A stretch of 64,000 bases of DNA from Planctomycetota bacterium (GCA_965223845.1 CBDCXR010000004.1:1792001-1856000), one strand, 5' to 3'; numbered from the stretch's first letter, positions 3 to 19,343 are shown. Program-made: numbers and translations. The notes: generated by a model not told the origin, from the sequence alone.

Positions 3-830
3 GCGCCGCACCGCTCGCTCGCGCTCGATCTCATTCGTGCGAACGGGCGCTCCGTGGACGCGTTCCTCGCACCGAGTCGCGCCTACGCCGATCACATGGA
101 GAAGTGGGCGGGTCTCGATCCGGACCGGATCGCGGTCGTCGAACCGGGCGTCGCGCTCTCTACCTCGAACGCGCCCGCAGACCCCGAGCGAAGTCTGCGG
201 CGCGAGGACGGCGTGCTCGCGATCGGCTTTCTGTCGAGAATGGCGCCGGAAAAGGGACTCCATCTCCTCGTCGATGCATTCGTTCGCCTGGTGCAAACGG
301 GCGATGTCCCCGGCCTCCGGCTTCGCATCGCAGGGTATTCGAGCCGCCGGAGCAGCGCCTACGTCCGCGCGCAGAGGCGGCGCGTCGATGCGGCGGGACT
401 GAGCTCCCAGGTCGAGTTCCTCGGTACGCTCGACGGCGCAGCAAAACGCGACTTTTTTCGCTCGATCGACGTTTTTGCGATGCCTTCGGTCCACGTCGAA
501 TCGAAGGCTCTCCCGGTCCTCGAGGCGCTCGCCCACGGAGTTCCGGTGGTCGTTCCGGCGGCCGGCTCGATCCCGGAGTGGATCCATGCGACCGAGGGAG
601 GGCTCCTCCACTCACCGGATTCGACGGATGAGCTCACCGCCGGCCTGCGTAAGCTACTTCGCGACGCGGAGCTCCGCCGCAAGCTCGGAGCGAGCGGCTC
701 GCGCGTCGTCCGCGAGCGCTTTGGCTCGCAGCACATGGCAGAGCGTGCCGTCGCCGTTTGGTCACGACTCGGCGAGTCACGCTCGGGTCCCGCCTCGTCT
801 TCGGACTCGAAAAGGCCCACGATCGAATGA
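3..830 (+). CDS. GT4-family glycosyltransferase (5'-truncated by window)
   Basis: Frame is open from base 3. GT-B C-terminal motifs SRMAPEKGL, DVFAMPS..E, VLEALAHGVPVV. Confidence 0.9.
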   Translation, partial: APHRSLALDLIRANGRSVDAFLAPSRAYADHMEKWAGLDPDRIAVVEPGVALSTSNAPADPERSLRREDGVLAIGFLSRMAPEKGLHLLVDAFVRLVQTGDVPGLRLRIAGYSSRRSSAYVRAQRRRVDAAGLSSQVEFLGTLDGAAKRDFFRSIDVFAMPSVHVESKALPVLEALAHGVPVVVPAAGSIPEWIHATEGGLLHSPDSTDELTAGLRKLLRDAELRRKLGASGSRVVRERFGSQHMAERAVAVWSRLGESRSGPASSSDSKRPTIE

Positions 831-1270
831 CTCACGAGTTTCGCCACGAGCGGCGCGTCGAGTTCGCCGACACCGACTGCGCCGGTATCATTCACTTTTC
901 CCGCTTCGCTTGCTACGCGGAAGAAGCAGAGCACGCATTTCTCCGCTCGCTCGGACTGAGCGTCCAGATGAAACACGAAGGACACACGATCGGCTTTCCG
1001 CGCCTCGCAAGTCGCTTTGAGTACTCGCGGCCGATCCGCTTCGAGGACGTCGTCGACATCCGGCTCCGGGTCGTGCGACTCGGTGCGAGCACCGTCACGT
1101 ATCAATTCCTTTTCGAGAAGGACGGCGACGAGGTCGCTCGTGGGGAGTTTACCGTCATCGCGTGTCGTGTGTATCCTGAGGGACGCATCGAGAAGACCGC
1201 GCTCCCGAACGCGTTCACGGATCTCGTTGAAATCGCGCCCGAGGGGGCACTCGATTTTCGCGAACGATGA
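827..1270 (+). CDS. Acyl-CoA thioesterase (4HBT/YbgC hot-dog fold)
   Basis: RVEFADTDCAGIIHFSRF matches the DTD.GxxH motif. ATG at 827 overlaps the upstream stop (ATGA). Confidence 0.88.
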   Translation: MTHEFRHERRVEFADTDCAGIIHFSRFACYAEEAEHAFLRSLGLSVQMKHEGHTIGFPRLASRFEYSRPIRFEDVVDIRLRVVRLGASTVTYQFLFEKDGDEVARGEFTVIACRVYPEGRIEKTALPNAFTDLVEIAPEGALDFRER

Positions 1271-1312
1271 CCCCGATCGACGGATCGACCGAGCGAGACG
1301 CCGGAGGATCGA

Positions 1313-2032
1313 TTGCCCGAACTCGAAGTTCACGCCCTCTCTAAGGAATACCCCACCCCGGCCGAGCCGCTCGTCGTCCTCGATGGCGTCGAGTTCGAGC
1401 TCGAGATCGGCGACGCGGCGGCGATCACCGGTCCGTCCGGATGCGGGAAGAGTACCCTGCTCCACATCCTCGGCGCTCTCGACACGCCGACATCCGGTCG
1501 CGTCACACTCGGAGGCGAGGACCCGTCGACTCTGAACGAGACGGATCTCGCGCGCTTTCGCGGCGAGAAGATCGGATTCGTCTTCCAGGACCATCATCTT
1601 CTGCCGCAGTGCTCGGCGCTCGAGAACGTGCTCGTACCGACGCTCGTCGAGCGAAGTGCGGCCGCGTCGGGCGAGAAGCGCGCGCGCGACCTTCTCGAGC
1701 GTGTCGGACTCTCGGACCGCAGCGACCACCTGCCGTCCGAGCTCTCGGGAGGTGAGCGGCAGCGCGTGGCCATCGCTCGCGCGCTCATTCGGTCGCCGCA
1801 GCTTCTCCTTTGCGATGAGCCGACCGGGAACCTCGACCCGGCGAGCGCGCGCCACGTCGGAGACCTCTTTCTCGAGCTCGCGGGATCGCGCGACCACGCG
1901 CTCGTCGTCGTCACGCACAGCGTCGAGCTGGCCGAGCGTTTTCCCCGCCGCTTCGTTCTCGACGACGGGAAGCTCCGAGCAGTGGGCGACGAGGCCCGTC
2001 GCGACGCTCCGCGAGCGCCGACTGCGACATGA
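1313..2032 (+). CDS. ABC transporter ATP-binding protein (LolD/MacB-like)
   Basis: Walker A GPSGCGKST, LSGGERQR signature, LLCDEPTGNLD. TTG start preceded by GGAGG. Confidence 0.93.
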   Translation: MPELEVHALSKEYPTPAEPLVVLDGVEFELEIGDAAAITGPSGCGKSTLLHILGALDTPTSGRVTLGGEDPSTLNETDLARFRGEKIGFVFQDHHLLPQCSALENVLVPTLVERSAAASGEKRARDLLERVGLSDRSDHLPSELSGGERQRVAIARALIRSPQLLLCDEPTGNLDPASARHVGDLFLELAGSRDHALVVVTHSVELAERFPRRFVLDDGKLRAVGDEARRDAPRAPTAT

Positions 2033-5000
2033 GCTCCGGGCGTGCGTTCGATCTCCGCGCGCTCGCGCTCCGCGGACTCCGGTGGCACCGCCGCTCGTAT
2101 CTCGCTTCGGTAGCGATGATCGCCGTCGCGACGGCGGTCGTGACCGGCGCCCTACTCGTCGGTGATTCGGTGCGGGGAAGCCTGCGCGACCGCGCGCTCG
2201 AGCGTTTCGGCGCCGTCGACTTCGCTCTCTCGAGTCGCACGGGTTTCTTCCGCGAGGAGTTGCTGCGGGACGAGTCGTCTCAGGCTCGCAGCCCGGACCG
2301 TGGCGACGAGGACGGCGCCCGGGACGAGAGCTCGATCCGCGCGACGTCCGTCATCCTCCTCCGGGGGTCGGCGGTCCACGCAGAGTCGCGTCAGCGCTCC
2401 GCCCGCGTTCACATCATCGGAGTGGACTCGACGTTTTGGTCGTTCTGGGAGGAGACGGAGTCGCTCGCCGAGCCGTTTCGAGGCGAAGAAGGTCGGCGCT
2501 GGTGCTGGGTGAATCCCGCCCTCGCCGCCGCGATCGGCAGCGAAGCGACCGACACGCTCCTGCTCTCTCTCGGCAAGGCGGAGTCCGTCGCATCCGAACA
2601 CCTCCTCGGCGCGCGCGACGACGCCGTTCGCACGCTCCGAGTCGCGTGCCGCCGGGTGATCCCTGCGGCCGGTCCGGCGTACTTCCGGCTCGATCAGGGG
2701 CAGGACGATCCGCACGTCGTTTACGTTCCCCTCTCGTTTCTTCAGCGAACTCTCGAGCGAGAGGGGGAAGCGAACGTCGCTCTCATCGCGGCCGGCGGAC
2801 CACAGGACGAAGCCTCGAGCGCCCTGCGGGCGCGGATCCGCGAGAGGCTTCAGGTCGGAGATCTCGGACTCGCGGTGCGGTCGGTCGCAGCCCGGGGCGA
2901 TCCCGCGTCTCCGGAATCGGCGCGGAGCGAGCTCGTGCTCGAAAGTCGAGAGCTCGTGCTCCCGGACGCGGTCGTCGAATCCGCCGAGCAGACCGCGCGC
3001 GCGCTCGGGGCGACGACCCGCCGCGTGTTGACGTATCTAGCGAACACGGTTCGCGTCGGTGAGCGCGAGATTCCCTATTCGACGATCACTGCCGTCGAGG
3101 ATGGCGGTTCAGCGGAACGACTCTTCGCTGAAGCGGTGTCCGGACCGCTCGCCGGAGAGAGCATCGTCCTCAATGATTGGGCCGCCCGCGAGCTCGACGC
3201 GAAGGTGGGGGAGAGCGTGACCCTTCGCTACTTCGTCGTCGTCGCCGGGAATGAGCTGCGCGAAGCCGAGGCGACGTTTCAGCTCGCGGGAATCGTTCCG
3301 ATCGACGAGGGACCGTTCGACGCGTCCTGGACTCCGACCTTTCCCGGAATCTCGGACAGCGCATCGCTGCGTGACTGGGACCCGCCGTTCCCCGTCGATT
3401 TCGATCGCATCGAGGATCGCGATGAAGAGTACTGGGATGAGTACCGCGCGACGCCGAAGGGCGCGATCGCGCTCGCCGAGGGAATCGAGCTCTGGGCGAC
3501 GCGATTTGGGCGGGCGACGTCCGTGCGTGTCGACCCCGCGGAGACTGGGCTTTCGGCGGAGACGTTCGCGAGCGCCCTCCTCGATCGACTCGATCCCGGA
3601 GCGGCCGGACTTTCGCTCGACGCCGTCAAGGCTCGAGCCCTCACCGCCGCGCGCGGAGCGACGGATTTTGCGATGCTCTTCGTCGCGTTCAGCTTCTTTC
3701 TCATCGTGAGCGCCCTCGTGCTTCTCTCGCTCGTCTTTCGACTGGCGGCTGAGCTGCGCGCGCGCGAACTCGGTACGCTTCTCGCGACGGGGTTTACCGC
3801 ACGAGACGCGACGACGCTTCTTCTTCGCGAAGGGAGAGGGCTCGTGGTGATCGGCGCCATCGTCGGCGCGGTCGGCGGAGTCGGCTACGCCGCCGCGCTC
3901 GTCGCGGGCCTTCGCACGCTCTGGAGTGGGGCCGTCAGCGCGCCCTTTCTCGAGCTTCACGTCACCGCCGGCTCGATCGCGATCGGGCTCTCGGTGACAG
4001 CGATTCTCGCGTTCGCCGTCATCATCGTCGTTGCCCGGCGGATCACGAGGACTGCGCCCCGCGCTCTCCTCGCCGGTGTTACGCGCGACGACCCGGTTCT
4101 CAGGCGAACGTCGACCCGTAGCCGAGGCTTCGTCGTCGTCGCCGGCGGCGTTGCCTGCGCAGTGCTGACTCTTGTGGGGACGCTCGATGCGTGGGCCCCG
4201 GAGGCGTGCTTTTTCGGCGCGGGAGCGGCGGGTCTCGTCGCGGGACTCGCGGCGCTCGACGTCGCGCTCCGCAAGCTCGCGCCCCAGGGGTTCGCCGGTC
4301 GGGGCGTCCGCGCCCTGATCGTCCTCGGTGTGCGCAACGCGGGCCGTCGCCCGGCCCGTAGTCTCCTCACGGCGTCCGTGCTCGCCGTCGCGGCGTTCAT
4401 CGTCATCGCCGTGGCCGCACAGCGGCGCGATGTCCGGCACGACGATCCCCAGCGCGATTCCGGCGACGGCGGGTATTCGCTTGTCGCACGGTCGGCCGTG
4501 CCCCTCACACGCTCCCTCGGGTCACGCGACGGTCGGGAGGCCCTCAATCTCGTCGGCGCGGCGGATGCGCTGGTCGGTGCGGCGGAGATCCACGCGCTCC
4601 GCGTGAAGCCCGGTGACGACTCGAGCTGCCTCAATCTCTACCGACCGCAGTCTCCGCGCATCGTCGGTGTTGAGAGCTCGTTTCGCGCCGCGGGAGGTTT
4701 TCGTTGGGCGAAGACCCTCGCGGACTCCGCCGAAGAGCGCGCGAACCCGTGGCTCCTCCTAGAGCGCACGCTTCCGGACGGCGCGATTCCCGCGATCGCC
4801 GACCTCAACACCGCCCAGTGGATTCTTCACGTCGGACTCGGAGACGAGATCGAAGTCCTCGCGGAAGACGCTCGACCGGTGAAGATTCGCCTTGTCGGAC
4901 TCCTAGCTCACAGCATTTTCCAGAGCGAGCTCGTCATCGCATCGGAGACCTTCGTCCGCGCGTTTCCGCGCGAGACCGGTTGGAGTCAGTTCCTCTTTCG

Positions 5001-5523
5001 CACCGATGTCCCGAACGGACCCGCGCCCGTCGACCTTTCCGGCGCGCTCGAGTCGGCGCTCGCGGATTACGGGTTCGACGTTCGGACGACGGGGGAAGTC
5101 CTCGCGGCGTTCAAGCGCGTCGAGAACACGTACCTCTCAACGTTTCAGATCCTCGGCGGACTCGGACTCCTCCTCGGGACGCTCGGCCTCGCCGTCGTTC
5201 TCGTCCGCAACGTCAACGAGAGACGCGCGGAGATCGGGCTGCTGAGGGCGGTCGGGTATACGCCGGCCGCGGTGCGGTGGGTCGTTTTCAGCGAGACCGG
5301 CACGCTTCTGGCCGGTGGCCTCGTTGTCGGTGGCGGTGCCGCGCTGCTCGCGTCCGTGCCCGTTTTCTTGAGCGGCGCCGGCGAGGTATCGGTCTCCGGC
5401 GTGCTCGGGACGGTTGCGGTGATCGCCGCCGCCGGGCTCGGCGCCGCGGCTCTGTCCATGCAGCGCGCGCTCGCGAGCTCATCCCCGGTGGACGCCCTCC
5501 GGGGCGAGAGCCGTCCCCGCTAG
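2029..5523 (+). CDS. Large FtsX/MacB-type ABC permease (two FtsX-like halves)
   Basis: RELGTLLATGF and ERRAEIGLLRAVGY FtsX motifs, multiple hydrophobic segments, large extracytoplasmic loops. ATGA overlap with the ATPase. Confidence 0.88.
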   Translation: MSSGRAFDLRALALRGLRWHRRSYLASVAMIAVATAVVTGALLVGDSVRGSLRDRALERFGAVDFALSSRTGFFREELLRDESSQARSPDRGDEDGARDESSIRATSVILLRGSAVHAESRQRSARVHIIGVDSTFWSFWEETESLAEPFRGEEGRRWCWVNPALAAAIGSEATDTLLLSLGKAESVASEHLLGARDDAVRTLRVACRRVIPAAGPAYFRLDQGQDDPHVVYVPLSFLQRTLEREGEANVALIAAGGPQDEASSALRARIRERLQVGDLGLAVRSVAARGDPASPESARSELVLESRELVLPDAVVESAEQTARALGATTRRVLTYLANTVRVGEREIPYSTITAVEDGGSAERLFAEAVSGPLAGESIVLNDWAARELDAKVGESVTLRYFVVVAGNELREAEATFQLAGIVPIDEGPFDASWTPTFPGISDSASLRDWDPPFPVDFDRIEDRDEEYWDEYRATPKGAIALAEGIELWATRFGRATSVRVDPAETGLSAETFASALLDRLDPGAAGLSLDAVKARALTAARGATDFAMLFVAFSFFLIVSALVLLSLVFRLAAELRARELGTLLATGFTARDATTLLLREGRGLVVIGAIVGAVGGVGYAAALVAGLRTLWSGAVSAPFLELHVTAGSIAIGLSVTAILAFAVIIVVARRITRTAPRALLAGVTRDDPVLRRTSTRSRGFVVVAGGVACAVLTLVGTLDAWAPEACFFGAGAAGLVAGLAALDVALRKLAPQGFAGRGVRALIVLGVRNAGRRPARSLLTASVLAVAAFIVIAVAAQRRDVRHDDPQRDSGDGGYSLVARSAVPLTRSLGSRDGREALNLVGAADALVGAAEIHALRVKPGDDSSCLNLYRPQSPRIVGVESSFRAAGGFRWAKTLADSAEERANPWLLLERTLPDGAIPAIADLNTAQWILHVGLGDEIEVLAEDARPVKIRLVGLLAHSIFQSELVIASETFVRAFPRETGWSQFLFRTDVPNGPAPVDLSGALESALADYGFDVRTTGEVLAAFKRVENTYLSTFQILGGLGLLLGTLGLAVVLVRNVNERRAEIGLLRAVGYTPAAVRWVVFSETGTLLAGGLVVGGGAALLASVPVFLSGAGEVSVSGVLGTVAVIAAAGLGAAALSMQRALASSSPVDALRGESRPR

Positions 5524-5638
5524 CCGGAATGAAACCGCACATCCGACGGTGGAGTCTCCGCCGACGGCGTTCGGCGCGGCGGAGGTCACCTGAGAGGCGG
5601 GATCCGCGCGGGCCGAGAGTCGGAAGTCTCTAGGCCGC

Positions 5639-5722
5639 TTACCGCGCGGGGCGGGTGTAGCGGAAGAGATCAGCGAAGGAGTTCAACAATCCGGCGAGAA
5701 GAGATCGCAGTGAACGCATCAT
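5639..5722 (-). CDS. Putative 27-aa amphipathic small peptide MMRSLRSLLAGLLNSFADLFRYTRPAR
   Basis: Hand-translated; below the ORF-track cutoff. SD-like GTGAGGTAGG immediately before ATG. Hydrophobic residues fall at i/i+3/i+4 spacing. Confidence 0.45.
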   Translation of the reverse strand: MMRSLRSLLAGLLNSFADLFRYTRPAR

Positions 5723-6058: not shown

Positions 6059-7873
6059 TCACCGGCTCGCCAGGCGGCCTAGCGCGCGCCGGAGGGCCGC
6101 TGCCGCGTAGACCGGAGGATAGAGGCGCTCGAAGTACCAGAGGTCGGCGAAGTAGAAGCCGATCGGGGTCGGATCCTCGAGTCCGCCCGCCTCGACCGTG
6201 CCCACGAGCCACTCGAGCCCCCGCTGGACGGCATCCTCGCCCGAGAGATCGCCGTCCGTTTCCGCCCCGAGCAACGCGTAGAGCGCGAGCGCCGACTCCT
6301 CGACGCTCGACGGCGCCCCGTGGTCGCCACCCCAGCCGCCGTCCTCGTTCTGCGCGTCGACGAGCCAACGCTGCGCGTTTCGCCGCACGGACTCCCCGAT
6401 CGGAACCTCCGCGTCCTCGAGGGCGATGAGGACCCGACTCGTCCCGTAGACGGGGCTCTCGTTCTGGGGGACGTGTTCGTTCCCGAACCAGAGCGGAAGC
6501 CACGCGCCGTCGGCCCGTTGCGTGCGCTCGAGGAATGCTCCCATCGCGCGAGTCGCCCGGTCGAGCCTCGGGGCGAGATCCGGAAACGTCCCGCGCCACG
6601 CGGAGAACGCTCGCAGGGCGTGAGCGGTCAGGTCCGCGCCGCTCCGATCGAACGGCAGCCGTCCCCAACCGCGGCAAAACGTCGGAATTCCACCGTCGCG
6701 ATTCTGCAGGTCGAGAAGCCAAGAGAGTCCCGCGGCCGAGGCGCGCCGCGACTCGGCATCGCCTTCGCCGAGGCACTTGAGAGCGAGGAGCGCACCCGCT
6801 GTATCGTCCGCGTCGGGAACGCCGCCGGGAAGATCGGTCCAAGCCCATCCCCCCGGCGCCGCCCCGGTGTACGGATGAACGGTTCGGTACTGCTGACTGA
6901 GAAGCCAACGGCGGATCGGTTCTCGGTCAGCGGGAGAGAGCGCGGACGCCCCCGCTTCAGCGAGCGCTCCAACCGCGAGCGTCGTCACCCAGGTCGCGAG
7001 ATCGGTGTCGATCGGCCAGCTTCCGTCCTTCCGTACTGAGTGCTCGAGGAACCGCGTCGCTTCGCGCACGACGGGGTGGCCCGCCGAACCGCTCGCGGCA
7101 AGACTCATCGTAACGAATGCCGTCAACGGCACCGCTTCGAGAAAACCGCCGCTCGCCGGCTGGATCTCGCGCAGAACGTTCAGCGTACGCGCGCGTGCCG
7201 CTGCGCGCGCCACTCGGGTCAAGGGATTCCGCGTGGGGCGATGGTGGTGGTGTACTTGCCCGACGGCGATCAAGGCCGGGAGGGCGTAGCTGACGACGGG
7301 AAGCCCGAGGAAACGAAACCAGCGACGGGGGAGCGCGGCGAGCTCGAACGGGAGAGACTTCACTGACCTCCAAGCATCGCGTCCCTCGCCTAGGCATCCG
7401 GCGAGGGCGCAGTGGGTGAGGATAGGCACGCTGAACGTTCGATCCTCACCGTAGACGGCGAGGATCGCCGCGGCGAGAGCGTCGGGCGAAGTCGAGCCGG
7501 CGCGCGCCGCGATCCAGTCCTCGGCACCCCGAATGGCGGACTCGACCTTCCCCTCTGACCGTGCGACCGCTCGCAGCGTCGCCCAACAGAGCGTCGTCGT
7601 GCTGATGTTGCTCCGGCTCGCCGGCGTGTCGCCCCAGCCGCCGTCCGTGTGAACGTTTTCCGCTAGCCAATGTGCTCCCCGCGCGACGAGCTCGCGGTGC
7701 TCCGGTCCACCGTGCTTCTCCACGAGTGCAAGCGCGAGAGTAGCGGTCGCGGTCGAGAGCGCACTCGTCGAGAGCTCGCCGCGCCAGTGGCCATCGGAAG
7801 TGCGTTCACCGAGCAGTCGCTGCTCGACGAGATCCGCGGCGCGCTTGAGTCTGTTGTCGAAGTCGTCCGTCAT
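6059..7873 (-). CDS. Squalene-hopene cyclase-like class II terpene cyclase
   Basis: GGWAW..PDADDTA (DxDD), QW repeats (LQNRDGGI, TQRADGAW, AQNEDGGWGG), WFGN and PIGFYFADLWY tail. Confidence 0.85.
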   Translation of the reverse strand: MTDDFDNRLKRAADLVEQRLLGERTSDGHWRGELSTSALSTATATLALALVEKHGGPEHRELVARGAHWLAENVHTDGGWGDTPASRSNISTTTLCWATLRAVARSEGKVESAIRGAEDWIAARAGSTSPDALAAAILAVYGEDRTFSVPILTHCALAGCLGEGRDAWRSVKSLPFELAALPRRWFRFLGLPVVSYALPALIAVGQVHHHHRPTRNPLTRVARAAARARTLNVLREIQPASGGFLEAVPLTAFVTMSLAASGSAGHPVVREATRFLEHSVRKDGSWPIDTDLATWVTTLAVGALAEAGASALSPADREPIRRWLLSQQYRTVHPYTGAAPGGWAWTDLPGGVPDADDTAGALLALKCLGEGDAESRRASAAGLSWLLDLQNRDGGIPTFCRGWGRLPFDRSGADLTAHALRAFSAWRGTFPDLAPRLDRATRAMGAFLERTQRADGAWLPLWFGNEHVPQNESPVYGTSRVLIALEDAEVPIGESVRRNAQRWLVDAQNEDGGWGGDHGAPSSVEESALALYALLGAETDGDLSGEDAVQRGLEWLVGTVEAGGLEDPTPIGFYFADLWYFERLYPPVYAAAALRRALGRLASR

Positions 7874-8015: not shown

Positions 8016-8765
8016 TCAACCGCCCGCCCCCCGGATCTTCGTTCCCATCCATCCCGAACGCGTCCGCGTCGCGATCACGAGTCCCGAGCCAACTCCGCTG
8101 AGGCGCGCGACGAGTTCGCCTCCTTCGGACCAGATCGAGCTCCCGCCCGCGGTGTCGAGCGTCGTCGACGGAGCGCCGTGATTCGCGAGAACTACGGCCA
8201 TCGAGTGCTCCCGAGCGTATCCGGAGAGCTTCTCCGAGACCGACTCGAACTCCGCCGGCGAGAAGAGCACGCCCGCGAGGTACAGCGTCGCGCCGCGCGC
8301 CGCGGCACTCCGGGGATGGGACGCGTGATTCGTGTCGGCGCAGATCGCGACCGCCGCGACGTCGTGCCCGATTCGAGTGAGCGGGTCACGCTCAGCCGGA
8401 TCGAACACGTCCAGCTCGTCGCCCCCGAGGTGGCGCTTCGTGTAGATCGCCTCCCGGCCATCCGCCCCGACGATGAACGCGCCGATGTGAAGTCCCGACG
8501 CGAGCCGGATCGGCGCGCCGACGACGAGCGTCACGCCGTGCTCGGCGGCCGCGTCACGGAGCGGGGCCAGCCGGTCGTCGCGCTCGGAGAACGCGAGGGC
8601 GTCGGCGAGATCCAATTCGTATCCCGTGAGCGACAATTCGGGAAAGACGAGAAGCTGGACGTCGTGTGCCGCCGCGACCGCGACCAGTCGGATGTGACGA
8701 TCGAGGTTATCGCGAACATCTCCCCGGAGTGACTCGATCTGGGCGGCACCGACGGTCACGCTCAT
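8016..8765 (-). CDS. Carbon-nitrogen hydrolase (nitrilase superfamily)
   Basis: Triad motifs VFPELSLTGY (E), YTKRHL (K), AICAD (C). Start moved to ATG at 8765. Confidence 0.88.
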   Translation of the reverse strand: MSVTVGAAQIESLRGDVRDNLDRHIRLVAVAAAHDVQLLVFPELSLTGYELDLADALAFSERDDRLAPLRDAAAEHGVTLVVGAPIRLASGLHIGAFIVGADGREAIYTKRHLGGDELDVFDPAERDPLTRIGHDVAAVAICADTNHASHPRSAAARGATLYLAGVLFSPAEFESVSEKLSGYAREHSMAVVLANHGAPSTTLDTAGGSSIWSEGGELVARLSGVGSGLVIATRTRSGWMGTKIRGAGG

Positions 8766-8802
8766 CTCGCGCGTCCCTTTGTCCTTTAGCATCCGGCGCC
8801 TG

Positions 8803-11383: not shown

Positions 11384-12271
11384 TCAAGAGGACTCGCCCG
11401 AAGGCGCGTCCGCGCTCCCAGTGTTCGGCCCTCGAGCTCCCGCCTCAGCGGCTCGGGCGCGAATCTCGTCCATCGACGGAAGCGACATCAGCACTTCCTC
11501 GGGGATGTCGAGATCGGACTGCAGCTTCTTCAGGCAGCGCATTCGCTCCTTGAGAGCCTTGCTCTCATCGCGCTCTTTCGAGAATCGCGACTCCGCCCGT
11601 CGATGGCGCTCCCGGAGAGCGCTGTAGATATCGCCGCCGAGTAGGGCGGAGATGTCGACCTTCATTTTCTCGCGCTCGACGTCCTCGTCACTCACGTTCG
11701 CGCCGTTGATGGGGCCGGCGCCGTATTTCGGGAAGAGGATGGCGACTTCCGGGCAAACCCGCGAGCAGGCCGGGCAGTTCGTCTTACACTTGTCCGGGTT
11801 CTTCACTTCGATCTGCGAATCCGCGTCGACCCCGTAGACGTCGAACAGGCAGAAGCTGAGGCACTGCATGCAGTTCGTGCAGCGCTCGAAGTCGATAACG
11901 GGAAACCACGGCTTCCACGCGCCCGGCTCGGGCGCACCGGCGTCTCGCGCCACGGATTCGACGAGCTCCGCCACGGCCGTCGGCTCGACCGAAGCGATGT
12001 CGTGCACTCCGTTGTGTTCGGCGGAGGATTCCGGCTTCTCGTCACGACCGTCGCGAAGAACGATCGTATCGGCCGGGAGAGCCTCGTTCCCTCCGCCCGC
12101 GAACGACGAGGCATCGCTGCCGGCGTACCGCACGGCGAAGCCCTTCTCGAGCACGGCCTTCAAGACGTCGCGCCGGCGCTCGACGGCCGCGTCCGAGTCG
12201 GCGACGGGGCCGCGCAAGAGCACGGGAACTCTCGCCCGCGAGGGGGCTGGGGTCGCTGCTTGGGGCGGCAC
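11384..12271 (-). CDS. 2[4Fe-4S] ferredoxin-domain protein
   Basis: CTNCMQCLSFC and CKTNCPACSRVCP cluster motifs. Confidence 0.85.
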   Translation of the reverse strand: MPPQAATPAPSRARVPVLLRGPVADSDAAVERRRDVLKAVLEKGFAVRYAGSDASSFAGGGNEALPADTIVLRDGRDEKPESSAEHNGVHDIASVEPTAVAELVESVARDAGAPEPGAWKPWFPVIDFERCTNCMQCLSFCLFDVYGVDADSQIEVKNPDKCKTNCPACSRVCPEVAILFPKYGAGPINGANVSDEDVEREKMKVDISALLGGDIYSALRERHRRAESRFSKERDESKALKERMRCLKKLQSDLDIPEEVLMSLPSMDEIRARAAEAGARGPNTGSADAPSGESS

Positions 12272-12349: not shown

Positions 12350-12721
12350 TCAGGTCTCCGCACTCGCGGGTCGCGCGGAAGGCTCGCGAAGAAGCGTCTC
12401 GACGATCGTCTTCGGATCCTCTTCGCGCATGTTGCAGATCTCGACCGGAGGTGCAGACTCCCCCTCAGCCAGCGGCGCTCCCGCCGCCTTGAAGAGCCAC
12501 TTCACCGACCGGGGAAAACAGGCCGCGATGCGAACCTCGGCGTTCGGTTCCGCCAATCGCGCGAGAGACGGGTCGCGCCGAGCCGAGAGTTCACACAGGT
12601 CGGCGACCGCCTCGAACGGTTCGCCCGAGCGGGCGAGCTCCGCGAGAACCGCATCCTTTACGCCAGGCGAGATGATCTTCGCGTAGGCGCAATGGCAGTA
12701 GAGGATCCGAGTCGGTGCCAT
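12350..12721 (-). CDS. Small Cys-motif protein (possible Fe-S partner of the ferredoxin gene)
   Basis: YCHC, DLC and ACFPR motifs. Start placed at ATG 12721, downstream of the predicted promoter. Confidence 0.65.
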   Translation of the reverse strand: MAPTRILYCHCAYAKIISPGVKDAVLAELARSGEPFEAVADLCELSARRDPSLARLAEPNAEVRIAACFPRSVKWLFKAAGAPLAEGESAPPVEICNMREEDPKTIVETLLREPSARPASAET

Positions 12722-12779
12722 GAGAAGTACCACGAGATAAACCCCGGTCGAGGAGACGACTCTCGGGCCGAATCCCGAC

Positions 12780-12808
12780 ATGCTATCAGGATCGGCGGAG
12801 GATGTCAG
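12780..12808 (-). promoter_or_regulatory. Putative sigma70 promoter CTGACA-N17-TAGCAT with extended -10 TG
   Basis: Read directly in the 200-bp gap between the CobW gene and the Cys-protein gene. Confidence 0.5.
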
Positions 12809-12931
12809 CTCCCGTGCCAGGGAAGCCAAGACGGGATAGGGAGTTACGTCGATTGCGCGGAGCTCGGAGCGCGCTCGGCGGCGGCCGGGCGCACGAGTCC
12901 CGAGATTCTCCTCGGGGCTTCGCTCCTCCCG

Positions 12932-14029
12932 TCATTCCTCCATGCGGTGCGTCGGCTGGGGCTCGCCCGGACGGAAGCTCTCGAGATCGTCGACCCGGAC
13001 GTCGGGGACCGAGATCTCCTCGAGGACCGACGCGACGGCTTCGCGGAGGACCGCGGGATCGGCCTCGGCGCGCAGATTGATGATCAGCTCGCCCGAACGA
13101 ATCGGGGTAGAGAGGCGCATTCCCGTCTCGGGGACGAATTCATTGCCGACGAGCTGACTCACCGCGAGCTCGCCGAGCACGGTACCGCTCGAGAGCGTGA
13201 GTTTCAGGTGCGCGATGTCGCGGACGTCACCCCGCAGGCGCTCCTGCAGCGACGCCATGATCCCGTCGACGAACGCGTTGCCGTCGAACTCTTCGGCGTG
13301 GCTCACGGTCGCGGTCGCGTTCAGCCACCCGAGGAGAGCCTCGCCCTCGCCGTAGATCGCGTAGTCGAGGTCCATCGCTTTCCCGCCCGGGAGATCCTCC
13401 GCGAGGATCCGATCGAGCCACGCGTCGAGGCCCTCGCCGCTCCGCGCCGAGACCTGAATCACGTCCGCACGCGCAAAGCGTTCCGCGAGAGCGCTCTCGA
13501 GCGCACGTCTCTCGTCCGGCGAGAGCAGATCGATCTTGTTGATCGCGATGAGGTGCGCCTCCTCGAGCTGCTTCTCGTAGATGTAGACGACTTTGCGCGA
13601 GAATTGCCGTCCGGATTCGAGCCCGAGTACCCGCATCGCTCGGCGCGGATCGACGAGCACGGTGAGCGGGGCGATCCGATAGCGCTCACCGTACATTCGC
13701 CGTAGCGGGTAACTGACCGAGGCGACGAGATCGGTGCAACTACCGACCGGCTCAGCGAGGAATACGTCGGGGCGATTCGCCGCGCTGAGATTGTCCGCCG
13801 CCGCGAGGAGGGAGCTGAACCGGCAGCAGAAACAACCGCCCGCGATCTCTTCAACGGCGTAGCCGCGCGCGCGGAGGAACCGCGTATCGACGAGGCCCTC
13901 TCCCTGATCGTTCGTGATCAATCCCACGGAGAGTCCCCGGGCGACGATCCGCTTCGCGAGCTCGGCGAGGGCCGTCGATTTACCCGCGCCGAGGAAGCCG
14001 CCGACCATGATGTAGTGTGCTCGATCCAA
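12932..14029 (-). CDS. CobW/COG0523-like G3E metallochaperone GTPase
   Basis: GGFLGAGKST, GGCFCC metal motif, EPVGSC, NKID. Confidence 0.85.
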   Translation of the reverse strand: MDRAHYIMVGGFLGAGKSTALAELAKRIVARGLSVGLITNDQGEGLVDTRFLRARGYAVEEIAGGCFCCRFSSLLAAADNLSAANRPDVFLAEPVGSCTDLVASVSYPLRRMYGERYRIAPLTVLVDPRRAMRVLGLESGRQFSRKVVYIYEKQLEEAHLIAINKIDLLSPDERRALESALAERFARADVIQVSARSGEGLDAWLDRILAEDLPGGKAMDLDYAIYGEGEALLGWLNATATVSHAEEFDGNAFVDGIMASLQERLRGDVRDIAHLKLTLSSGTVLGELAVSQLVGNEFVPETGMRLSTPIRSGELIINLRAEADPAVLREAVASVLEEISVPDVRVDDLESFRPGEPQPTHRMEE

Positions 14030-14059
14030 GGGATCCTCGAGTTTTCTCGTATCGGTGGG

Positions 14060-14566
14060 TCAGCAGTCGGCGCCACCCGCGCCGAGGTCCACTCCGCTCC
14101 GCCAGGGTTGCTCGAGCATCTTGTCGATCGTCGCGTGGAGCTGCGCGACGTATCCCTCGACGTCGACGGCCTTCGGATCGGGCGTCCCGCGGAGCGCGAA
14201 CAGCCAACCGTCGCCGTACGGATCCTTGCAGATCAGCTCGGGGTCCTCGCGGACGGCGGGATTCACGCCAGCGAATTCACCGCCCGCCACAGAATAGATA
14301 TCCGAGACCGCCTTAAACCCTTCGATCCAGCCGAGGGCCTGCGCGACCTCGACTTTTTGCCCCTCGTCGACTTCAAACTCGAACTCCACGATTTCGCCGA
14401 GCATTCGAGTTGCGAACCCGGTGAGTCCGACTCGCCACGTGGATGCGTCCTTCTCGTCGGGGCACGTGAGCCAGTAGTGCGAGAGCGTGTAGACGTACTC
14501 GCGGGGCAGTCGAGTCGAGAAGTGGTTTCGCTTGAAGCGAATCGGGCCGTCGTCCGGGGCGGTCAT
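14060..14566 (-). CDS. Glycine cleavage H-like (lipoyl-carrier fold) protein
   Basis: YTLSHYW, RVGLTGFA..LGEIV, IEGFKAVSDIYS (Lys retained), DPYGDGW. Start trimmed to ATG 14566. Confidence 0.8.
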   Translation of the reverse strand: MTAPDDGPIRFKRNHFSTRLPREYVYTLSHYWLTCPDEKDASTWRVGLTGFATRMLGEIVEFEFEVDEGQKVEVAQALGWIEGFKAVSDIYSVAGGEFAGVNPAVREDPELICKDPYGDGWLFALRGTPDPKAVDVEGYVAQLHATIDKMLEQPWRSGVDLGAGGADC

Positions 14567-14580
14567 CGGTGTGACTTTTC

Positions 14581-15786
14581 TCAGCGCTCGCCGGTTGGAA
14601 GGCAGTGATCGGCGCGCGGGGCCGATCGGGGTCGAGCGCGCAGCTCGGTCACGGCCGCGATCACCGAGTCGGCGGCTCGCTCGATCTCGTCGGGCGTCGT
14701 CGTTCGTCCGAGACCGAATCGCAGCGACCCCTCCGCGGCCGCGCTCGAGCCGTAGAGCATCTGGAGGACGTAGGAGCCGGTTTGCTTCGCCGACGAACAC
14801 GCGGCGCCGGACGAGACCGCGACGCTGGGGATGGCGCGGAGGAGGTCCTCGCTGTGAACGCCGAATCCGACGCTCAGATTGTTCGGGAGACGATCCGTCA
14901 TCGTTCCGTGGAGGGTGACACCCTCGAGCCCCGTGCGCAGACGGTGCCAGAGGCGGTCCCGCAGTTTGGAGATGCGTTCGCTGTCGCGGTCTCGCTCCTC
15001 GGCGACGATCGCGGCCGCGCAGCCGAAGCCCACGATCCCCGGAACGTTGAGTGTTCCCGACCGCAGACCGCGCTCGTGTCCACCCCCGTCGATTTGCGCG
15101 CGCAGTCGCACCCGCGGCCGACGCCGGCGCACATAGAGGGCGCCGACGCCTTTCGGCCCGTACATCTTATGCGCGGAAAGCGAGAGGAGATCGACGCCGA
15201 GCTCGTCGACCCCGAGCGGAAGATGCGCTCCGGCCTGGGCGGCGTCCGAATGAAGGAGCGTGCCGTGCCGACGACAAATCGCCGAGATCTCTCGGAGCGG
15301 ATGCACCGTGCCGATCTCGTTGTTCGCGTACATGAGGGAAACGAGCGCAGTCTCGTCGCGAATCGCATTCTCGAGTCGATCGAGGTCGAGCGTTCCGTCC
15401 GCGTCGACTCCGAGATAGGTCACCTCGAACCCGTCTTCCTCGAGGCGTGCGCAGGTATCGAGAACCGCTTTGTGCTCGGTCCCACAGGTGACCAGGTGTC
15501 GTCCGCGCGCACCGGTCGCGGTCATGACGCCTTTGAGCGCGAGGTTGTTCGATTCCGTCGCGCCCGAGGTGAATACGATCTCGCGGGGATCCGCGGCGAG
15601 CAGATCGGCGACTTCCGCGCGTGCGCGCTCGACGTGGCGAGCCGCGGCCCGTCCGGCCGCGTGCTGTGCGCTCGCGGCGTTTCCGAACGTCTCCGCGAAC
15701 ATCGGGAGCATCGCTTCGACGACGCGGGGATCGCACGGCGTCGTCGCGTGGTGATCGAGATAAATCGGTGAAAATTCAGCGGCCAA
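14581..15786 (-). CDS. iscS: Cysteine desulfurase (IscS/NifS type)
   Basis: YLDHHATTP, FTSGATESNN, SAHKMYGPKG (PLP Lys), SSGAACSS (catalytic Cys). Start uncertain; TTG 15786 chosen. Confidence 0.88.
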   Translation of the reverse strand: MAAEFSPIYLDHHATTPCDPRVVEAMLPMFAETFGNAASAQHAAGRAAARHVERARAEVADLLAADPREIVFTSGATESNNLALKGVMTATGARGRHLVTCGTEHKAVLDTCARLEEDGFEVTYLGVDADGTLDLDRLENAIRDETALVSLMYANNEIGTVHPLREISAICRRHGTLLHSDAAQAGAHLPLGVDELGVDLLSLSAHKMYGPKGVGALYVRRRRPRVRLRAQIDGGGHERGLRSGTLNVPGIVGFGCAAAIVAEERDRDSERISKLRDRLWHRLRTGLEGVTLHGTMTDRLPNNLSVGFGVHSEDLLRAIPSVAVSSGAACSSAKQTGSYVLQMLYGSSAAAEGSLRFGLGRTTTPDEIERAADSVIAAVTELRARPRSAPRADHCLPTGER

Positions 15787-16208
15787 GAGAGGTCCGAACG
15801 GGGACGTGGCGAGGTCGGAGAGCAGTCTCGGTGGTGGTCTACGCGGTGCCGGAGATTCTATCGCGACTCGCACGATCGATCCAAAACCGTCGGCGACGCG
15901 AGCCGCTTGGGCCGCGGCGGCCGCCCGAGCGTTTTCGGTACTTGTCGGGAGCGGTTCCCGACCGACCGCTCGCGACGAGCACCGGCGCGACTCCCGCGCG
16001 GCGGGGCGATTCCCGTCGCATCCTTCGGGCGAGGAGGATCTCAATCTTGCCCGCTCGAGTCCGAGCGCGCCTCGGCGCGCTGTGGGTCGAAATCCTTTCT
16101 TGTCCGGCAGCCGCCCTCTTATGATCACTCTGTCCCGACTTCAAACGCTGAGACAGCCGAGTCGAGTGACGTCGATTTCTCCATCTCTCCGCGACTCTCA
16201 CCAACGCG

Positions 16209-17513
16209 ATGACGACGCCCCTCTCCGAAGAAGATACCGAAGTCGGTAGTTACTTCATCTCGAACTACCCGCCGTTCAGCTTTTGGAAGCCGGAGCACGT
16301 AGATTCCGCCCGGGCGGCCATCGATCGATCGCCCGCGCCGGACGTACCGCTCGGACTCTATCTCCACATCCCGTTTTGCCGAAAACGGTGCAAGTTCTGC
16401 TACTTTCGGGTCTACACCGAAAAGAACAGCCGTGAAGTGGAGCGCTATCTAGCCGCACTCGTTCGCGAGATCGCTCTATACAGCGAGCGGCCCGTCCTCG
16501 AGGGGCGACCGTTTCGATTCGCGTATTTCGGCGGTGGAACGCCGTCGTTCCTCAGCGAGAAGCAGCTCCTCTCCCTGGTCGATCGACTGCGCGCGTCGAT
16601 CGATTGGGACGACGCCGAGGAGGTCACGTTCGAGTGCGAGCCGGGAACGCTCACCGAACGAAAGCTGCGGGCGATCCGCGAGCTGGGAGTGACGCGCCTC
16701 AGTCTCGGCATCGAGAATTTCGACGACGCCATTCTCGAAGAGAACGGACGGGCACACCGCAGTCCGGAAGTGTTTCGCGCGTACGAGTGGGCTCGGGCGA
16801 TCGGATTCCCACAGATCAACGTCGATCTCATCGCCGGGATGGTCGGTGAAACGACAGAGAACTGGCACGAGTGTGTGCGGAAGACGATCGAGCTCGCGCC
16901 CGATTCGGTGACGATCTACCAGCTCGAGCTTCCGTTCAACGCGGTGTACTCGAGCGAGCTCCGAACGGGCGGCGAAGTCTCCGTCGCGACGTGGGGGCGG
17001 AAGCGGGAGTGGGTGGCCTACGCGTTCGACGCGCTGCGCGAAGCCGGCTATTCCGTCTCGAGCGCTTACACCATGGTGAAGGACCCCGACGCCAAGTTCG
17101 TCTATCGCGATGCGCTCTGGCGCGGCGCCGACATGCTCGGGACGGGGGTCGCTTCGTTTTCGCACGTCGCCGGCGTGCATTTTCAGAATCTTGACACCGA
17201 CACGCAGTACCTGGAGTCGCTCGAGAGCGGCGAGCTTCCGATCGGACGCGCGCTTCCCGTCACGGATCGCCAACGCATGATTCGCGAATTGATCCTCCAG
17301 CTCAAGCTCGGCTCGGTGGACCCGGCGTACTTTGAGCGCAAATTCGGGTTAAGGATCACGCGAGAGTTCGGTTCGGTCTGGGACGACCTTCGTGACCACG
17401 GGTATCTCGAGTCCGGCGACCCGCCCACTTTGACGCGAGACGGGCTTTTGCGCGTCGACGCGTTCCTCCCGCGATTCTTCGAGCCGGAGCACCAAGGCGC
17501 TCGGTATACGTAA
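16209..17513 (+). CDS. HemN-like radical SAM protein
   Basis: YLHIPFCRKRCKFC (CxxxCxxC), YFGGGTPS, N-terminal SNYPPF. Confidence 0.9.
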   Translation: MTTPLSEEDTEVGSYFISNYPPFSFWKPEHVDSARAAIDRSPAPDVPLGLYLHIPFCRKRCKFCYFRVYTEKNSREVERYLAALVREIALYSERPVLEGRPFRFAYFGGGTPSFLSEKQLLSLVDRLRASIDWDDAEEVTFECEPGTLTERKLRAIRELGVTRLSLGIENFDDAILEENGRAHRSPEVFRAYEWARAIGFPQINVDLIAGMVGETTENWHECVRKTIELAPDSVTIYQLELPFNAVYSSELRTGGEVSVATWGRKREWVAYAFDALREAGYSVSSAYTMVKDPDAKFVYRDALWRGADMLGTGVASFSHVAGVHFQNLDTDTQYLESLESGELPIGRALPVTDRQRMIRELILQLKLGSVDPAYFERKFGLRITREFGSVWDDLRDHGYLESGDPPTLTRDGLLRVDAFLPRFFEPEHQGARYT

Positions 17514-17526
17514 GTCGAATTCGGCC

Positions 17527-18084
17527 ATGACACCGACCGTTCAGCTGACGACTCTCCTCGATTCTTTCCCGGACGGTCCTTTCCGTTCGAGCGATCTAGA
17601 GCTCATCTCACCAGCCGAGGTGCCGGAGCCCTACGCGCGGCTCCTCGTCCACAACCACCACATGACGGTGACGCTCGAAGATTTCCACCGAGCGACGCTT
17701 TCTCTCCAGGTGCTTGGCGAGAAGCGGACGGACGACAGCTACACGCGGCGGCTCACGCTGAGCGTGGGCTCTCCTGAAGAAGACCGACGGGTCGTCCTCG
17801 CAGGAATCATGCGCATCGCGCTCGATCGCTGCAGCGACCGAGTACGGCACGAGATCCTCTCCGGGGCGACACCCCTCGGGCGAATCCTAATCTCGAATCG
17901 CGTTCTTCGCCGAGTCGAGTCCAACGCGTATCTTCGCGTGAAGCTGAGCGCGCCCATCCGGACGATGTTCGCGCTCGCCGATGACACCAAGGGGTTCGCC
18001 TACGGACGCATCGCGCGCATCTTCTGCGACGGTGAGCAGGCGATCGAGCTGCTCGAGATCGTTCCGCCGGAGCCGGAAGAATGA
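17527..18084 (+). CDS. Chorismate-lyase/UTRA-like fold protein
   Basis: LLVHNHHMTVTLE and ILSGATPLGRIL resemble UbiC/DUF98-type motifs (T..LE, PLG.IL). Confidence 0.5.
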   Translation: MTPTVQLTTLLDSFPDGPFRSSDLELISPAEVPEPYARLLVHNHHMTVTLEDFHRATLSLQVLGEKRTDDSYTRRLTLSVGSPEEDRRVVLAGIMRIALDRCSDRVRHEILSGATPLGRILISNRVLRRVESNAYLRVKLSAPIRTMFALADDTKGFAYGRIARIFCDGEQAIELLEIVPPEPEE

Positions 18085-19343
18085 ACGATCGAGTCCCGGT
18101 AGTGGTGATCGGCGGTGGGCCGGCGGGCTCGACGGTCGCGGCGCTTCTCGCGGACGCGGGAGTCGGCGTGCGGCTCTTAGAGCGTGCGACGATGCCGCGC
18201 TTTCACATCGGAGAGTCTCTCATCACGGAAACCTACTGGACGTTCGAGCGCCTCGGGGTTCTCGATCGCTTGAAGGCCTCGGACTTCCCGAAGAAGTACA
18301 GCGTTCAGTTCATCTCCGAGAGCGGGCGTGCCTCTCGTCCGTTTTATTTCTACGAGCGGGATCCGCACGAGAGCTCGATGACTTGGCAGGTCGACCGCGC
18401 GGAGTTCGACCAGATGCTCCTTCAGAACGCGGCCGCGAAGGGGGCAGATGTCCGTACCGGCTACGGAGTTCGCCGCGTCCGCTTCGACGGCGAGCGCGCC
18501 GTGGGGGTCGAAGGGACGGACTCCGCGGGCGAACCATTCGCACTCGACGCGGATGTCGTGGTCGACGCGACGGGCCTTCACGCGCTCCTCGCTCGCCAAG
18601 AAAACCTCCTCCAGCGGGACCCGCATCTCGTCAAGGCCGCCGTATTCACGCACTTCGAAGGGGCGAGGCGAGACGAGGGAATCGACGAGGGCGCGACGCT
18701 CATCATCCACACGAAGGGAAACCGCGGCTGGTTTTGGTACATCCCGCTCAGTCGGGATCGCGTGAGCGTCGGAGTGGTCGGATCATCGCGGGAACTCATG
18801 CAGGGAGGCGTGAAACCGGACGAGATCCTCGCGCGCGAGATCGAAGCCTGCGCCGCGGTCAAGGATCGCGTTGCCGGCGCGCGACGCGTCAGCGACGTCC
18901 ATGTCACGAGCGACTATACCTACCGGGCGACGCGCTGTGCGGGCGACGGTTACGTGCTCGTCGGCGACGCGTTCGGGTTTCTCGATCCGATCTACTCCTC
19001 CGGCGTCCTGCTCGCGCTGAAATCGGGAGAGCTCGCGGCGGATACGATCGCGGCAGCCCTCGCCGACGGCGACATGTCGGCCGAACGTCTCAGCGCGATG
19101 GGCGCTCCGATCGCGACGGGAATGGAAGCGTTTCGGAAGATGGTCTACGCGTTCTACACACCGGGGTTCAGCTTCGCGAATTTCGTCGCGCAGCATCCGG
19201 AACATCGCGATGCCCTCGTTCGCGTCCTCATCGGAGACGTGTTCAAGGGTGACACCGATGAGATCTTTCAGGCGATGGGCGCGATGTGCGAGCTTCCCGA
19301 GGAAGTTCCTCTCGGCGGGGAAGGACCCGAGCACCGGGCGTGA
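18081..19343 (+). CDS. FAD-dependent halogenase-like oxidoreductase
   Basis: GGGPAG, HIGESL, FPKK, WFWYIP (WxWxIP), GDAFGFLDPIYSSG. Confidence 0.82.
   Translation: MNDRVPVVVIGGGPAGSTVAALLADAGVGVRLLERATMPRFHIGESLITETYWTFERLGVLDRLKASDFPKKYSVQFISESGRASRPFYFYERDPHESSMTWQVDRAEFDQMLLQNAAAKGADVRTGYGVRRVRFDGERAVGVEGTDSAGEPFALDADVVVDATGLHALLARQENLLQRDPHLVKAAVFTHFEGARRDEGIDEGATLIIHTKGNRGWFWYIPLSRDRVSVGVVGSSRELMQGGVKPDEILAREIEACAAVKDRVAGARRVSDVHVTSDYTYRATRCAGDGYVLVGDAFGFLDPIYSSGVLLALKSGELAADTIAAALADGDMSAERLSAMGAPIATGMEAFRKMVYAFYTPGFSFANFVAQHPEHRDALVRVLIGDVFKGDTDEIFQAMGAMCELPEEVPLGGEGPEHRA

Follow-up and report, generated by a model that had tools for sequence, protein, structure and literature searches.

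A squalene-hopene cyclase-like enzyme and its iron-sulfur and prenyl gene partners in a planctomycete: a candidate cluster for a non-hopanoid terpenoid

What might a class II terpene cyclase make when it resembles squalene-hopene cyclase (SHC) and is encoded among genes for a polyprenyl synthase and iron-sulfur (Fe-S) proteins? The question is raised by a 64,000-nucleotide stretch of a Planctomycetota bacterium (GCA_965223845.1, CBDCXR010000004.1:1792001-1856000), here called the window, which carries such a cyclase gene within positions 3-19343. An original prediction, made from the sequence alone, had read this region as an orphan cluster for a cyclised, tailored and exported terpenoid or meroterpenoid. 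We lean towards regarding 6059-19343 as the planctomycetal version of a widely conserved SHC-like cyclase gene cluster and, about as strongly, towards a polycyclic non-hopanoid terpenoid as its product, built from a regular polyprenyl diphosphate and not from squalene, with an Fe-S/radical-SAM step.

Because the window is G+C-rich (62-69%), its genes were chosen by codon-position G+C together with family matches (Pfam, NCBIfam). Those in 3-19343 form three transcription units, plus, then convergent minus, then divergent plus, in line with the three adjacent units first proposed, and every gene on the original list is present. Four features are additions to that list: a DUF116 fusion, a CN-hydrolase, a GcvH-like carrier and a small protein with four conserved cysteines (4-Cys protein). 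The cyclase belongs to unit 2, which runs from 16128 down to 6059 and encodes, in order of transcription:

14581..16128, minus strand: IscS/NifS-type cysteine desulfurase (NF010611 480 bits, cutoff 548; Pfam Aminotran_5)
14060..14800, minus strand: GcvH-like lipoyl-carrier protein (Pfam GCV_H 1.5e-21; conserved part 14060-14560, open reading frame [ORF] start uncertain)
12932..14029, minus strand: CobW/HypB-type (COG0523-like) GTPase (Pfam cobW 1e-23)
12350..12829, minus strand: small 4-Cys protein, no Pfam family, likely true start 12688 (112 aa)
11384..12271, minus strand: 2x[4Fe-4S] ferredoxin-domain protein (FER) with extra N- and C-terminal regions, 295 aa (Pfam Fer4 families)
9629..11353, minus strand: DUF116 fused N-terminally to a trans-polyprenyl diphosphate synthase (DUF116-IDS), 574 aa (Pfam DUF116 and polyprenyl_synt)
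8803..9687, minus strand: single alpha-alpha toroid, a prenyltransferase-beta-like barrel (PTb), 294 aa (Pfam Prenyltrans)
8016..8792, minus strand: CN-hydrolase, nitrilase-superfamily amidase-like (Pfam CN_hydrolase 1.2e-21)
6059..7873, minus strand: SHC-like class II terpene cyclase, 604 aa, beta-gamma didomain (Pfam SQHop_cyclase_C and _N; DADDTA motif)

The cyclase and its relatives

The acid motif of the cyclase reads VPDADDTA and thus contains the DxDDTA proton donor of SHC; D354-A-D-D-T358 was invariant in 20/20 family members. The closest PDB match of the family profile is the SHC of A. acidocaldarius, over the C-terminal half only (E 1e-32), and SHC-type residues align with that enzyme across this half of the protein. 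The SHC equivalog model TIGR01507 gave the window cyclase 122 bits against a cutoff of 431.1 and left all six homologues taken from other loci below it as well (90.3-111.8 bits), whereas four of four control SHC/SqhC proteins passed with 461-800 bits. Three of these controls are annotated shc genes whose loci carry hpnC/D/E, hpnH or hpnA, genes that the called ORFs of the window lack; the fourth is a Brevibacillus homologue. With both SHC/OSC models of NCBIfam the window cyclase fell below the cutoff and the controls passed. Among plasmid records, 46 match the cyclase at 27-33% identity and none (0/46) covers at least 80% of the query; the stretches in which it aligns to SHCs make up 34-55% of the protein and are about 30% identical. 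In a quick maximum-likelihood tree of 38 rows, one of which (L045, branch 9.28) is probably a mis-picked ORF, the four SHC controls are set apart by a branch 4.94 substitutions per site long (SH-aLRT 100); the tree shows the separation of the window cyclase from canonical SHCs only, and the sequences of the published clade discussed below are not in it. The window cyclase is therefore outside canonical SHC, as the original prediction had suggested, and the check that it had proposed, whether the cyclase groups with true SHCs, did not overturn it.

The enzyme thus shares with the SHCs of hpnCDE/hpnH loci the beta-gamma alpha-alpha toroid fold, the DxDDTA acid and aromatic cavity residues, but it differs from them in its score, in its divergent N-terminal half and in having no adjacent genes for squalene or for the hopanoid side chain. 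As a 604-aa didomain protein it also differs from MstE-type enzymes, which are single beta domains of about 350 aa with a catalytic DxD acid. No SQS_PSY, HpnH or UbiA family member was found among the ORFs called over the whole 64-kb window, a search that was not an exhaustive six-frame scan, and squalene-synthesis or hopanoid tailoring families neither occur among these ORFs nor recur in 80 related loci; the earlier remark that squalene genes are missing nearby was thus supported. It could still be argued that this is an ordinary hopanoid locus whose cyclase is the SHC of the organism, with the squalene genes elsewhere in the genome. Some database records indeed label members of the family 'squalene--hopene cyclase', and the DxDDTA motif is present, but the failed SHC/OSC models and the short, distant alignment to SHCs speak against this explanation, as does the statement in the available supplement text of PMC7306690 that planctomycetes usually encode an SHC plus, separately, an SHC-like protein. 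We consider it highly improbable.

The family to which the cyclase belongs is large. All 8000 candidates that were scored were significant, the best 120 being 51-63% identical, and relatives were found in at least 464 species genomes. Represented among the best 80 loci are Verrucomicrobiota, Planctomycetota, Acidobacteriota, Hydrogenedentota, Sumerlaeota and Methylomirabilota. As far as the text is available, McShea et al. 2025 (PMC12414744) describe a cyclase clade without an assigned function, with members in PVC, FCB, Spirochaetota and Acidobacteriota. Santana-Molina et al. 2020 (PMC7306690) report that planctomycetal and verrucomicrobial SHC-like proteins retain the catalytic residues, that a polyprenyl synthase usually lies near their genes and that their precursor is likely to be something other than squalene. 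Judged by its PVC/Acidobacteriota taxa, its length (604 aa, within the 550-700 aa class), its catalytic residues and the polyprenyl synthase nearby, the window cyclase appears to fit this published SHC-like clade. The label 'orphan' consequently has to be dropped, given the number of genomes with a relative and the fact that both papers already cover the clade and the polyprenyl synthase associated with it.

Given these statements, a cyclic terpenoid derived from a precursor other than squalene is in itself no new idea either. The papers on the SHC-like clade differ from what we describe here in that their text, where available, names only the polyprenyl synthase as a neighbor and not the IscS, GcvH, CobW, 4-Cys, FER and radical SAM block, the DUF116 fusion or the barrel. 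We found no description in the literature of the Fe-S/GcvH/IscS/CobW/radical-SAM block or of the DUF116 fusion with this cyclase, although figures and closed supplements may hold one. Neither 'radical SAM' nor 'DUF116' occurs anywhere in the supplement text of PMC7306690, and literature searches on DUF116, or on a terpene cyclase together with cysteine desulfurase, radical SAM or glycine-cleavage proteins, returned nothing relevant. The epoxy-polyprenyl cyclases Lon15, AtoE, Bra4 and PlaT2, reported as a sister clade, share regular head-to-tail polyprenyl substrates and a clustered polyprenyl synthase; their clusters, however, use an epoxidase and are mostly from Actinomycetes, and the likeness is one of description.

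The conserved partners of the cyclase

Synteny was counted by tblastn of the window proteins against the best 80 loci (E<=1e-8, at least 40% of the query) and, as a subset, in the 50 of these with at least 9 kb of upstream sequence. The core gene order recurs in other phyla, beyond chance, the phyla concerned being Planctomycetota, Verrucomicrobiota, Acidobacteriota and Hydrogenedentota: IscS, GcvH-like protein, CobW GTPase, 4-Cys protein, 2x[4Fe-4S] protein, radical SAM enzyme, DUF116-polyprenyl synthase, barrel and cyclase. The barrel was present in 40/80 loci (32/50 in the subset, where it adjoins the cyclase), DUF116-IDS in 36/80 (28/50), the 4-Cys protein and FER in 25/80 each (24/50 each), IscS in 20/80 (17/50), the GcvH-like protein in 20/80 (20/50) and CobW in 17/80 (17/50). 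All-against-all clustering of every ORF in the loci returned the same families and, in addition, a 398-aa radical SAM enzyme that is absent from the window. The search for synteny elsewhere, which the original prediction had named as a possible refutation, therefore did not refute it. One of its details has to be revised, in that the Fe-S and metal genes had been regarded as accessory support; they recur with the cyclase across loci and are therefore core members.

A radical SAM enzyme accompanies every FER gene: 26/26 FER-bearing loci have one in the block, and they belong to three unrelated types (22 of 398 aa, 3 of about 520 aa and 1 HemN-like). The 398-aa protein lies between FER and DUF116-IDS in 24/80 loci and is mostly 60-69% identical across phyla, while the different, ~520-aa type fills that slot in L024, L033 and L074. 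In L067 a HemN-like gene stands directly before the GcvH-FER-cyclase genes. The window has neither the 398-aa nor the ~520-aa type and carries instead a HemN-like gene across an 81-bp divergent gap. As a separate observation, genes of mobile or defence type occur within or next to the cluster in other genomes; in L067, FER and the cyclase are separated by a ParE toxin gene (9645-9965).

In 32 sequences of DUF116-IDS, C107, C114, C125, C128, C131, C173 and C201, including a CxxCxxC motif, are invariant or nearly so, as are DDIED and the second DD..D motif of the synthase domain. The AF2 model of DUF116 has a pLDDT of 78.7. Relative to the first DDxxD, the synthase has Ala-Ser at -5/-4 and Phe at -8. 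Work on the Thermotoga octaprenyl synthase is said to allow chain length to be read from the residues before this motif, and by that analogy the arrangement suggests a product longer than C20 and of bounded length.

The barrel has the same single alpha-alpha toroid fold as the beta subunits of protein prenyltransferases (RabGGTase, FTase) and as MstE. Its AF2 model (pLDDT 97.6) retrieved RabGGTase beta as the best Foldseek match (TMq 0.74), with MstE and short myxobacterial cyclases at about 0.66. Protein prenyltransferase beta subunits have an Asp/Cys/His zinc site and a partner alpha subunit. The barrel differs from them in that no Cys is invariant in 34 sequences and no PPTA-repeat (alpha subunit) gene was found among the called ORFs of the window; no DxD or DxDD acid was identified in its 294 aa, DxDD being absent from the 34 sequences as well. 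Since it has neither the invariant Cys nor DxDD, it does not qualify as a zinc prenyltransferase, nor is it obviously a cyclase, and from the modelled fold we infer that it may be a prenyl-binding partner.

The remaining partners are marked by conserved cysteines or a conserved lysine. Eight Cys of FER are invariant in 28 sequences, and C45, C47, C79 and C104 of the 4-Cys protein in 19/19; for the latter, a PDB sequence search gave only designed proteins and one weak match, and its ESM-Atlas neighbors are unnamed clusters. The GcvH-like protein scores 77 bits with PF01597 (cutoff 22.2) and its EGFKA lysine is invariant in 18/18 sequences, but with the gcvH equivalog it reaches 78.4 bits, under the cutoff of 115.85, so that by these profiles the 14060-14560 protein classifies as a GcvH-like carrier and not as GcvH itself. 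In four verrucomicrobial loci (L076, L079, L080 and L053) a dihydrolipoamide-dehydrogenase-type flavoprotein (Pyr_redox_2 plus dimerisation domain) is encoded about 1-2 kb from the barrel or the cyclase and may be relevant to a lipoyl-type carrier. In one planctomycete locus (L077, 13864-14280), a CbiX-type chelatase gene lies directly 3' of DUF116-IDS; together with the CobW GTPase and the similarity of radical SAM enzymes to HemN and to NirJ/Ahb, these family matches give a hint of tetrapyrrole or metal-insertion chemistry.

Such a set of proteins could also serve another end. The Fe-S, radical SAM, GTPase, H-protein and IscS genes might mature a DUF116 metallocofactor or modify the lysine of the GcvH-like protein, the prenyl enzymes serving that process, with no free membrane lipid as a product. 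The seven invariant Cys of DUF116 and the invariant carrier lysine fit this explanation, and so does the composition of two known systems. According to the available parts of PMC11736057 and PMC12752695, maturation of the [FeFe]-hydrogenase H-cluster uses two radical SAM enzymes, a GTPase and a lipoyl H-protein; according to that of PMC10332631, sulfur oxidizers build lipoate with a GcvH homologue, two radical SAM enzymes and an FAD reductase. What HydE/G/F plus H-protein, and LbpA with LipS1/S2 and LipT, would share with the block is thus the use of radical SAM enzymes and of a GcvH-type carrier, together with a GTPase or FAD reductase and a source of sulfur. However, no HydE, HydG, HydF, LipS1, LipS2 or lipoate ligase model appeared among the best 25 NCBIfam families for each protein, so that the likeness is an analogy of composition and not homology, and the link to terpene enzymes has no counterpart in those systems. 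The intact catalytic motif of the cyclase moreover argues for a real cyclisation. We judge this cofactor or protein modification unlikely and prefer cyclisation of a polyprenyl chain.

One gene of unit 2 stands apart. The CN-hydrolase is inserted exactly between barrel and cyclase and has no counterpart in the related loci (0/80), by which it would be a lineage-specific insertion; its FPE, TKRH and AICAD motifs are presumably those of the Glu/Lys/Cys (E/K/C-type) triad. In nine other loci a DCC1-like thiol-disulfide oxidoreductase gene directly precedes the cyclase, in L034 and L038 in the same slot as the CN-hydrolase.

The HemN-like unit and the flanking genes

Unit 3 begins 81 bp from IscS and reads in the opposite direction:

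16209..17513, plus strand: HemN-like radical SAM enzyme (CxxxCxxC, GGGTP)
17527..18084, plus strand: 185-aa protein (U185), possibly of chorismate-lyase/UTRA-type fold (ESM-Atlas lead)
18081..19343, plus strand: flavin-dependent halogenase-like FAD enzyme (Pfam Trp_halogenase 8.8e-35; start overlapping the U185 stop by 4 bases)

The first of these scores below the cutoffs of hemN (175 vs 325), HemW (166.7 vs 205.4) and HutW (171 vs 400) and is best placed, from these matches, in the HemN-like radical SAM superfamily at large. U185 had been called chorismate-lyase-like, and here the evidence divides: an ESM-Atlas lead of 0.95 points to clusters named chorismate lyase family, in which Pfam families cover 11-19% of members, but there is no Pfam match even at E<=10, and hence neither PF04345 nor PF01947. 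The FAD enzyme has the motifs GGGPAG and GWFWYIP, which correspond to the GxGxxG and WxWxIP of the halogenase signature. It scores 120.9 bits with PF04820 (cutoff 21), has a catalytic Lys candidate at K71/K72 and shows the motifs and the Trp_halogenase match expected of flavin-dependent halogenases; with the CmlS equivalog model it reaches 179.7, under the cutoff of 900.

Each of the three genes was counted in 3/80 loci. HemN-like orthologues about 60% identical to that of the window stand beside GcvH-FER-cyclase in L067, whereas those of L058 and L069 are 5-7 kb away from the cluster; U185 homologues follow DUF116-IDS in L051 (44% identical) and occur in L058 and L069 (31-32%), where homologues of the FAD enzyme are 46-47% identical. 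In L058 and L069 the HemN-like, U185, FAD and 4HBT thioesterase genes lie 5-7 kb downstream, split from the cluster by unrelated genes. The unit recognized in the original prediction was thus seen again, beside or near the cluster, in these four loci. Long ORFs in L058 and L069 that might have been U185-FAD fusions were rejected, being out-of-frame read-through upstream of the true FAD start. Since 26/26 FER loci have a radical SAM enzyme, and since the window, with none in that slot, has a HemN-like one about 60% identical to that of L067, we regard units 2 and 3 as functionally linked, a gene-context argument further supported by L051, L058 and L069.

The same unit is central to the meroterpenoid that had been proposed at the outset. 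In that explanation U185 would convert chorismate into an aromatic acid, which a HemN-like methyltransferase and the halogenase-like enzyme would tailor; after its prenylation with the polyprenyl chain the cyclase would fold the prenyl tail as MstE or Lon15 do. Bromophenol pathways pair a chorismate lyase with a flavin halogenase. Besides GWFWYIP in the FAD enzyme and the ESM-Atlas lead for U185, this explanation can call on the recurrence of the unit near the cluster, on the 4HBT thioesterase that follows it, 3' of the FAD gene, in L058 and L069 (with a PaaK-like AMP-binding enzyme in L069) and on the sister clade, which takes in meroterpenoid cyclases according to the available text of PMC12414744. 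It is opposed by the missing Pfam match of U185 and by the finding that the ORFs called in the window include no aromatic prenyltransferase of the UbiA or ABBA type. Moreover, a HemN-like, U185 or FAD gene lies within 10 kb in only 3/80 loci, and in L058 and L069 unrelated genes (GmrSD, HEPN, a PQQ propeller) stand between the unit and the cluster. So much of the proposal stands as the recurrence of the unit, while the absent prenyltransferase and the minority of loci with an aromatic-type unit tell against it; we consider a meroterpenoid rather unlikely and retain the non-hopanoid terpenoid. In L058, GmrSD and a HEPN gene follow the cyclase (12011-13741).

The genes of unit 1, on the other flank, are as follows:

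3..830, plus strand: GT4 glycosyltransferase, 5' end cut by the window edge (Pfam)
827..1270 (or from 758), plus strand: YbgC/4HBT-type thioesterase (TIGR00051 4.5e-14)
1313..2032, plus strand: LolD-like ABC ATPase (Pfam, NCBIfam)
2029..5523, plus strand: FtsX-domain permease, 1164 aa (Pfam, NCBIfam)

GT4 and the FtsX permease were found in 0/80 loci each, and the ABC ATPase matched in 4/80 at 28-35% identity, which is generic ABC similarity; the glycosylation and export of the original prediction therefore receive no comparative support, and on gene context GT4, ATPase and permease would be neighbors, their membership in the cluster being unsupported. The thioesterase (2/80 loci) is a possible satellite of the cluster, but in the window it belongs to the GT4-ABC operon, its ATG at 827 overlapping the GT4 stop as ATGA.

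The three genes past 19343 (19398-22937) had no counterpart in the 80 related loci (tblastn). No Rfam families or tRNAs were found in the window, and a promoter and terminator scan of 1-20000 gave signals not above those of shuffles. The remainder holds typical planctomycete families (PSCyt, PSD, DUF1552, sulfatases). At 22356-22937 (plus) lies a small methyltransferase whose nearest model is the ornithine-lipid N-methyltransferase OlsG (7.6e-31; 107 bits, below the cutoff of 350). At 22691-27544 (plus) is a 1617-aa protein with BNR/sialidase-like, sulfatase and SASA acetylesterase domains, adjoined by GlcNAc 2-epimerase-like and DHDPS/N-acetylneuraminate-lyase-family genes; from its domains, this region looks like a sialic-acid or sulfated-glycan utilization locus. 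A 1570-aa ORF at 37650-42362 (minus) has coding-like codon bias and no Pfam family at E<=1e-5, and the strongest G-C skew of the window (-0.142) falls at 40-42 kb. Two PSCyt/PSD (planctomycete cytochrome-like) plus DUF1552 gene pairs (43361-46851 and 48776-53028, plus) lie around an FGE-sulfatase/WD40 protein. Two convergent giant genes (54424-58722, plus, and 58739-62170, minus) encode 1432 and 1143 aa, with ECF-type sigma-70 regions 2 and 4 followed by many CarboxypepD_reg repeats, an odd fusion.

Proposed pathway and its significance

The pathway that we favor would start with the DUF116-fused polyprenyl synthase, making a regular head-to-tail polyprenyl diphosphate. The prenyltransferase-beta-like barrel would bind or hand over this chain, and the cyclase would protonate a terminal double bond via DADDTA and fold the chain into a polycyclic non-hopanoid. 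The radical SAM enzyme (HemN-like here), the 2x[4Fe-4S] and 4-Cys proteins, the CobW GTPase, the GcvH-like carrier and IscS may act on the substrate, or on a DUF116 cofactor, in a step that depends on redox, radical or sulfur chemistry. In the most economical version of the pathway such an Fe-S/radical-SAM step would be obligatory, with IscS, the GTPase and the lipoyl-type carrier in its service. What the sequences show is the gene content, the motifs, the synteny and the place of the cyclase outside canonical SHC; substrate, chain length and the parts played by the barrel and by the Fe-S/GcvH module are inferred.

Several points weigh against this pathway. No member of the cyclase family has a known product, substrate or activity, and the argument on chain length leans on work on another enzyme, the Thermotoga octaprenyl synthase. 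In 15/50 loci of the subset the cyclase is solitary, with no PTb, IDS or FER, so that its link to the partners is not obligatory by adjacency. For DUF116, Foldseek found nothing in the PDB at E<=0.001 (best 0.02) and a sequence search gave 0 matches; as there is no structural relative, its Fe-S role is argued from Cys conservation. The HemN-like family is very widespread in Planctomycetota (62-73% identity), for which reason the gene next to IscS could be a housekeeping heme enzyme, adjacent by chance. Finally, the window may be an atypical or partly remodelled copy, since it is without the common 398-aa radical SAM type and has the extra CN-hydrolase.

A bolder version of the pathway, which we put forward as doubtful, is that the cyclase would not act by itself on a plain polyprene and that DUF116 would hold a special Fe-S-type cofactor served by IscS, the H-protein-like carrier, the GTPase and the radical SAM enzyme. 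This would allow a reductive, radical or sulfur-inserting polyprenyl chemistry without precedent, before or after cyclisation, and would give PVC bacteria and Acidobacteriota polycyclic isoprenoids of a new class that might contain sulfur. If this is true, such isoprenoids could be the source of orphan biomarkers in sediments.

Which substrate the SHC-like clade uses and what it makes are stated open questions in cyclase evolution and biomarker geochemistry, and the available text of PMC12414744 notes that future work on the clade of unknown function would constrain evolutionary scenarios. Finding the cyclase in a block with a DUF116-fused polyprenyl synthase, a putative prenyl-binding barrel and an Fe-S/radical-SAM/GcvH/IscS/GTPase module tells which genes to co-express and suggests a reason why a cyclase assayed by itself might show no activity. 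DUF116 and the unnamed family of 4-Cys proteins likewise stand out as subjects for study.

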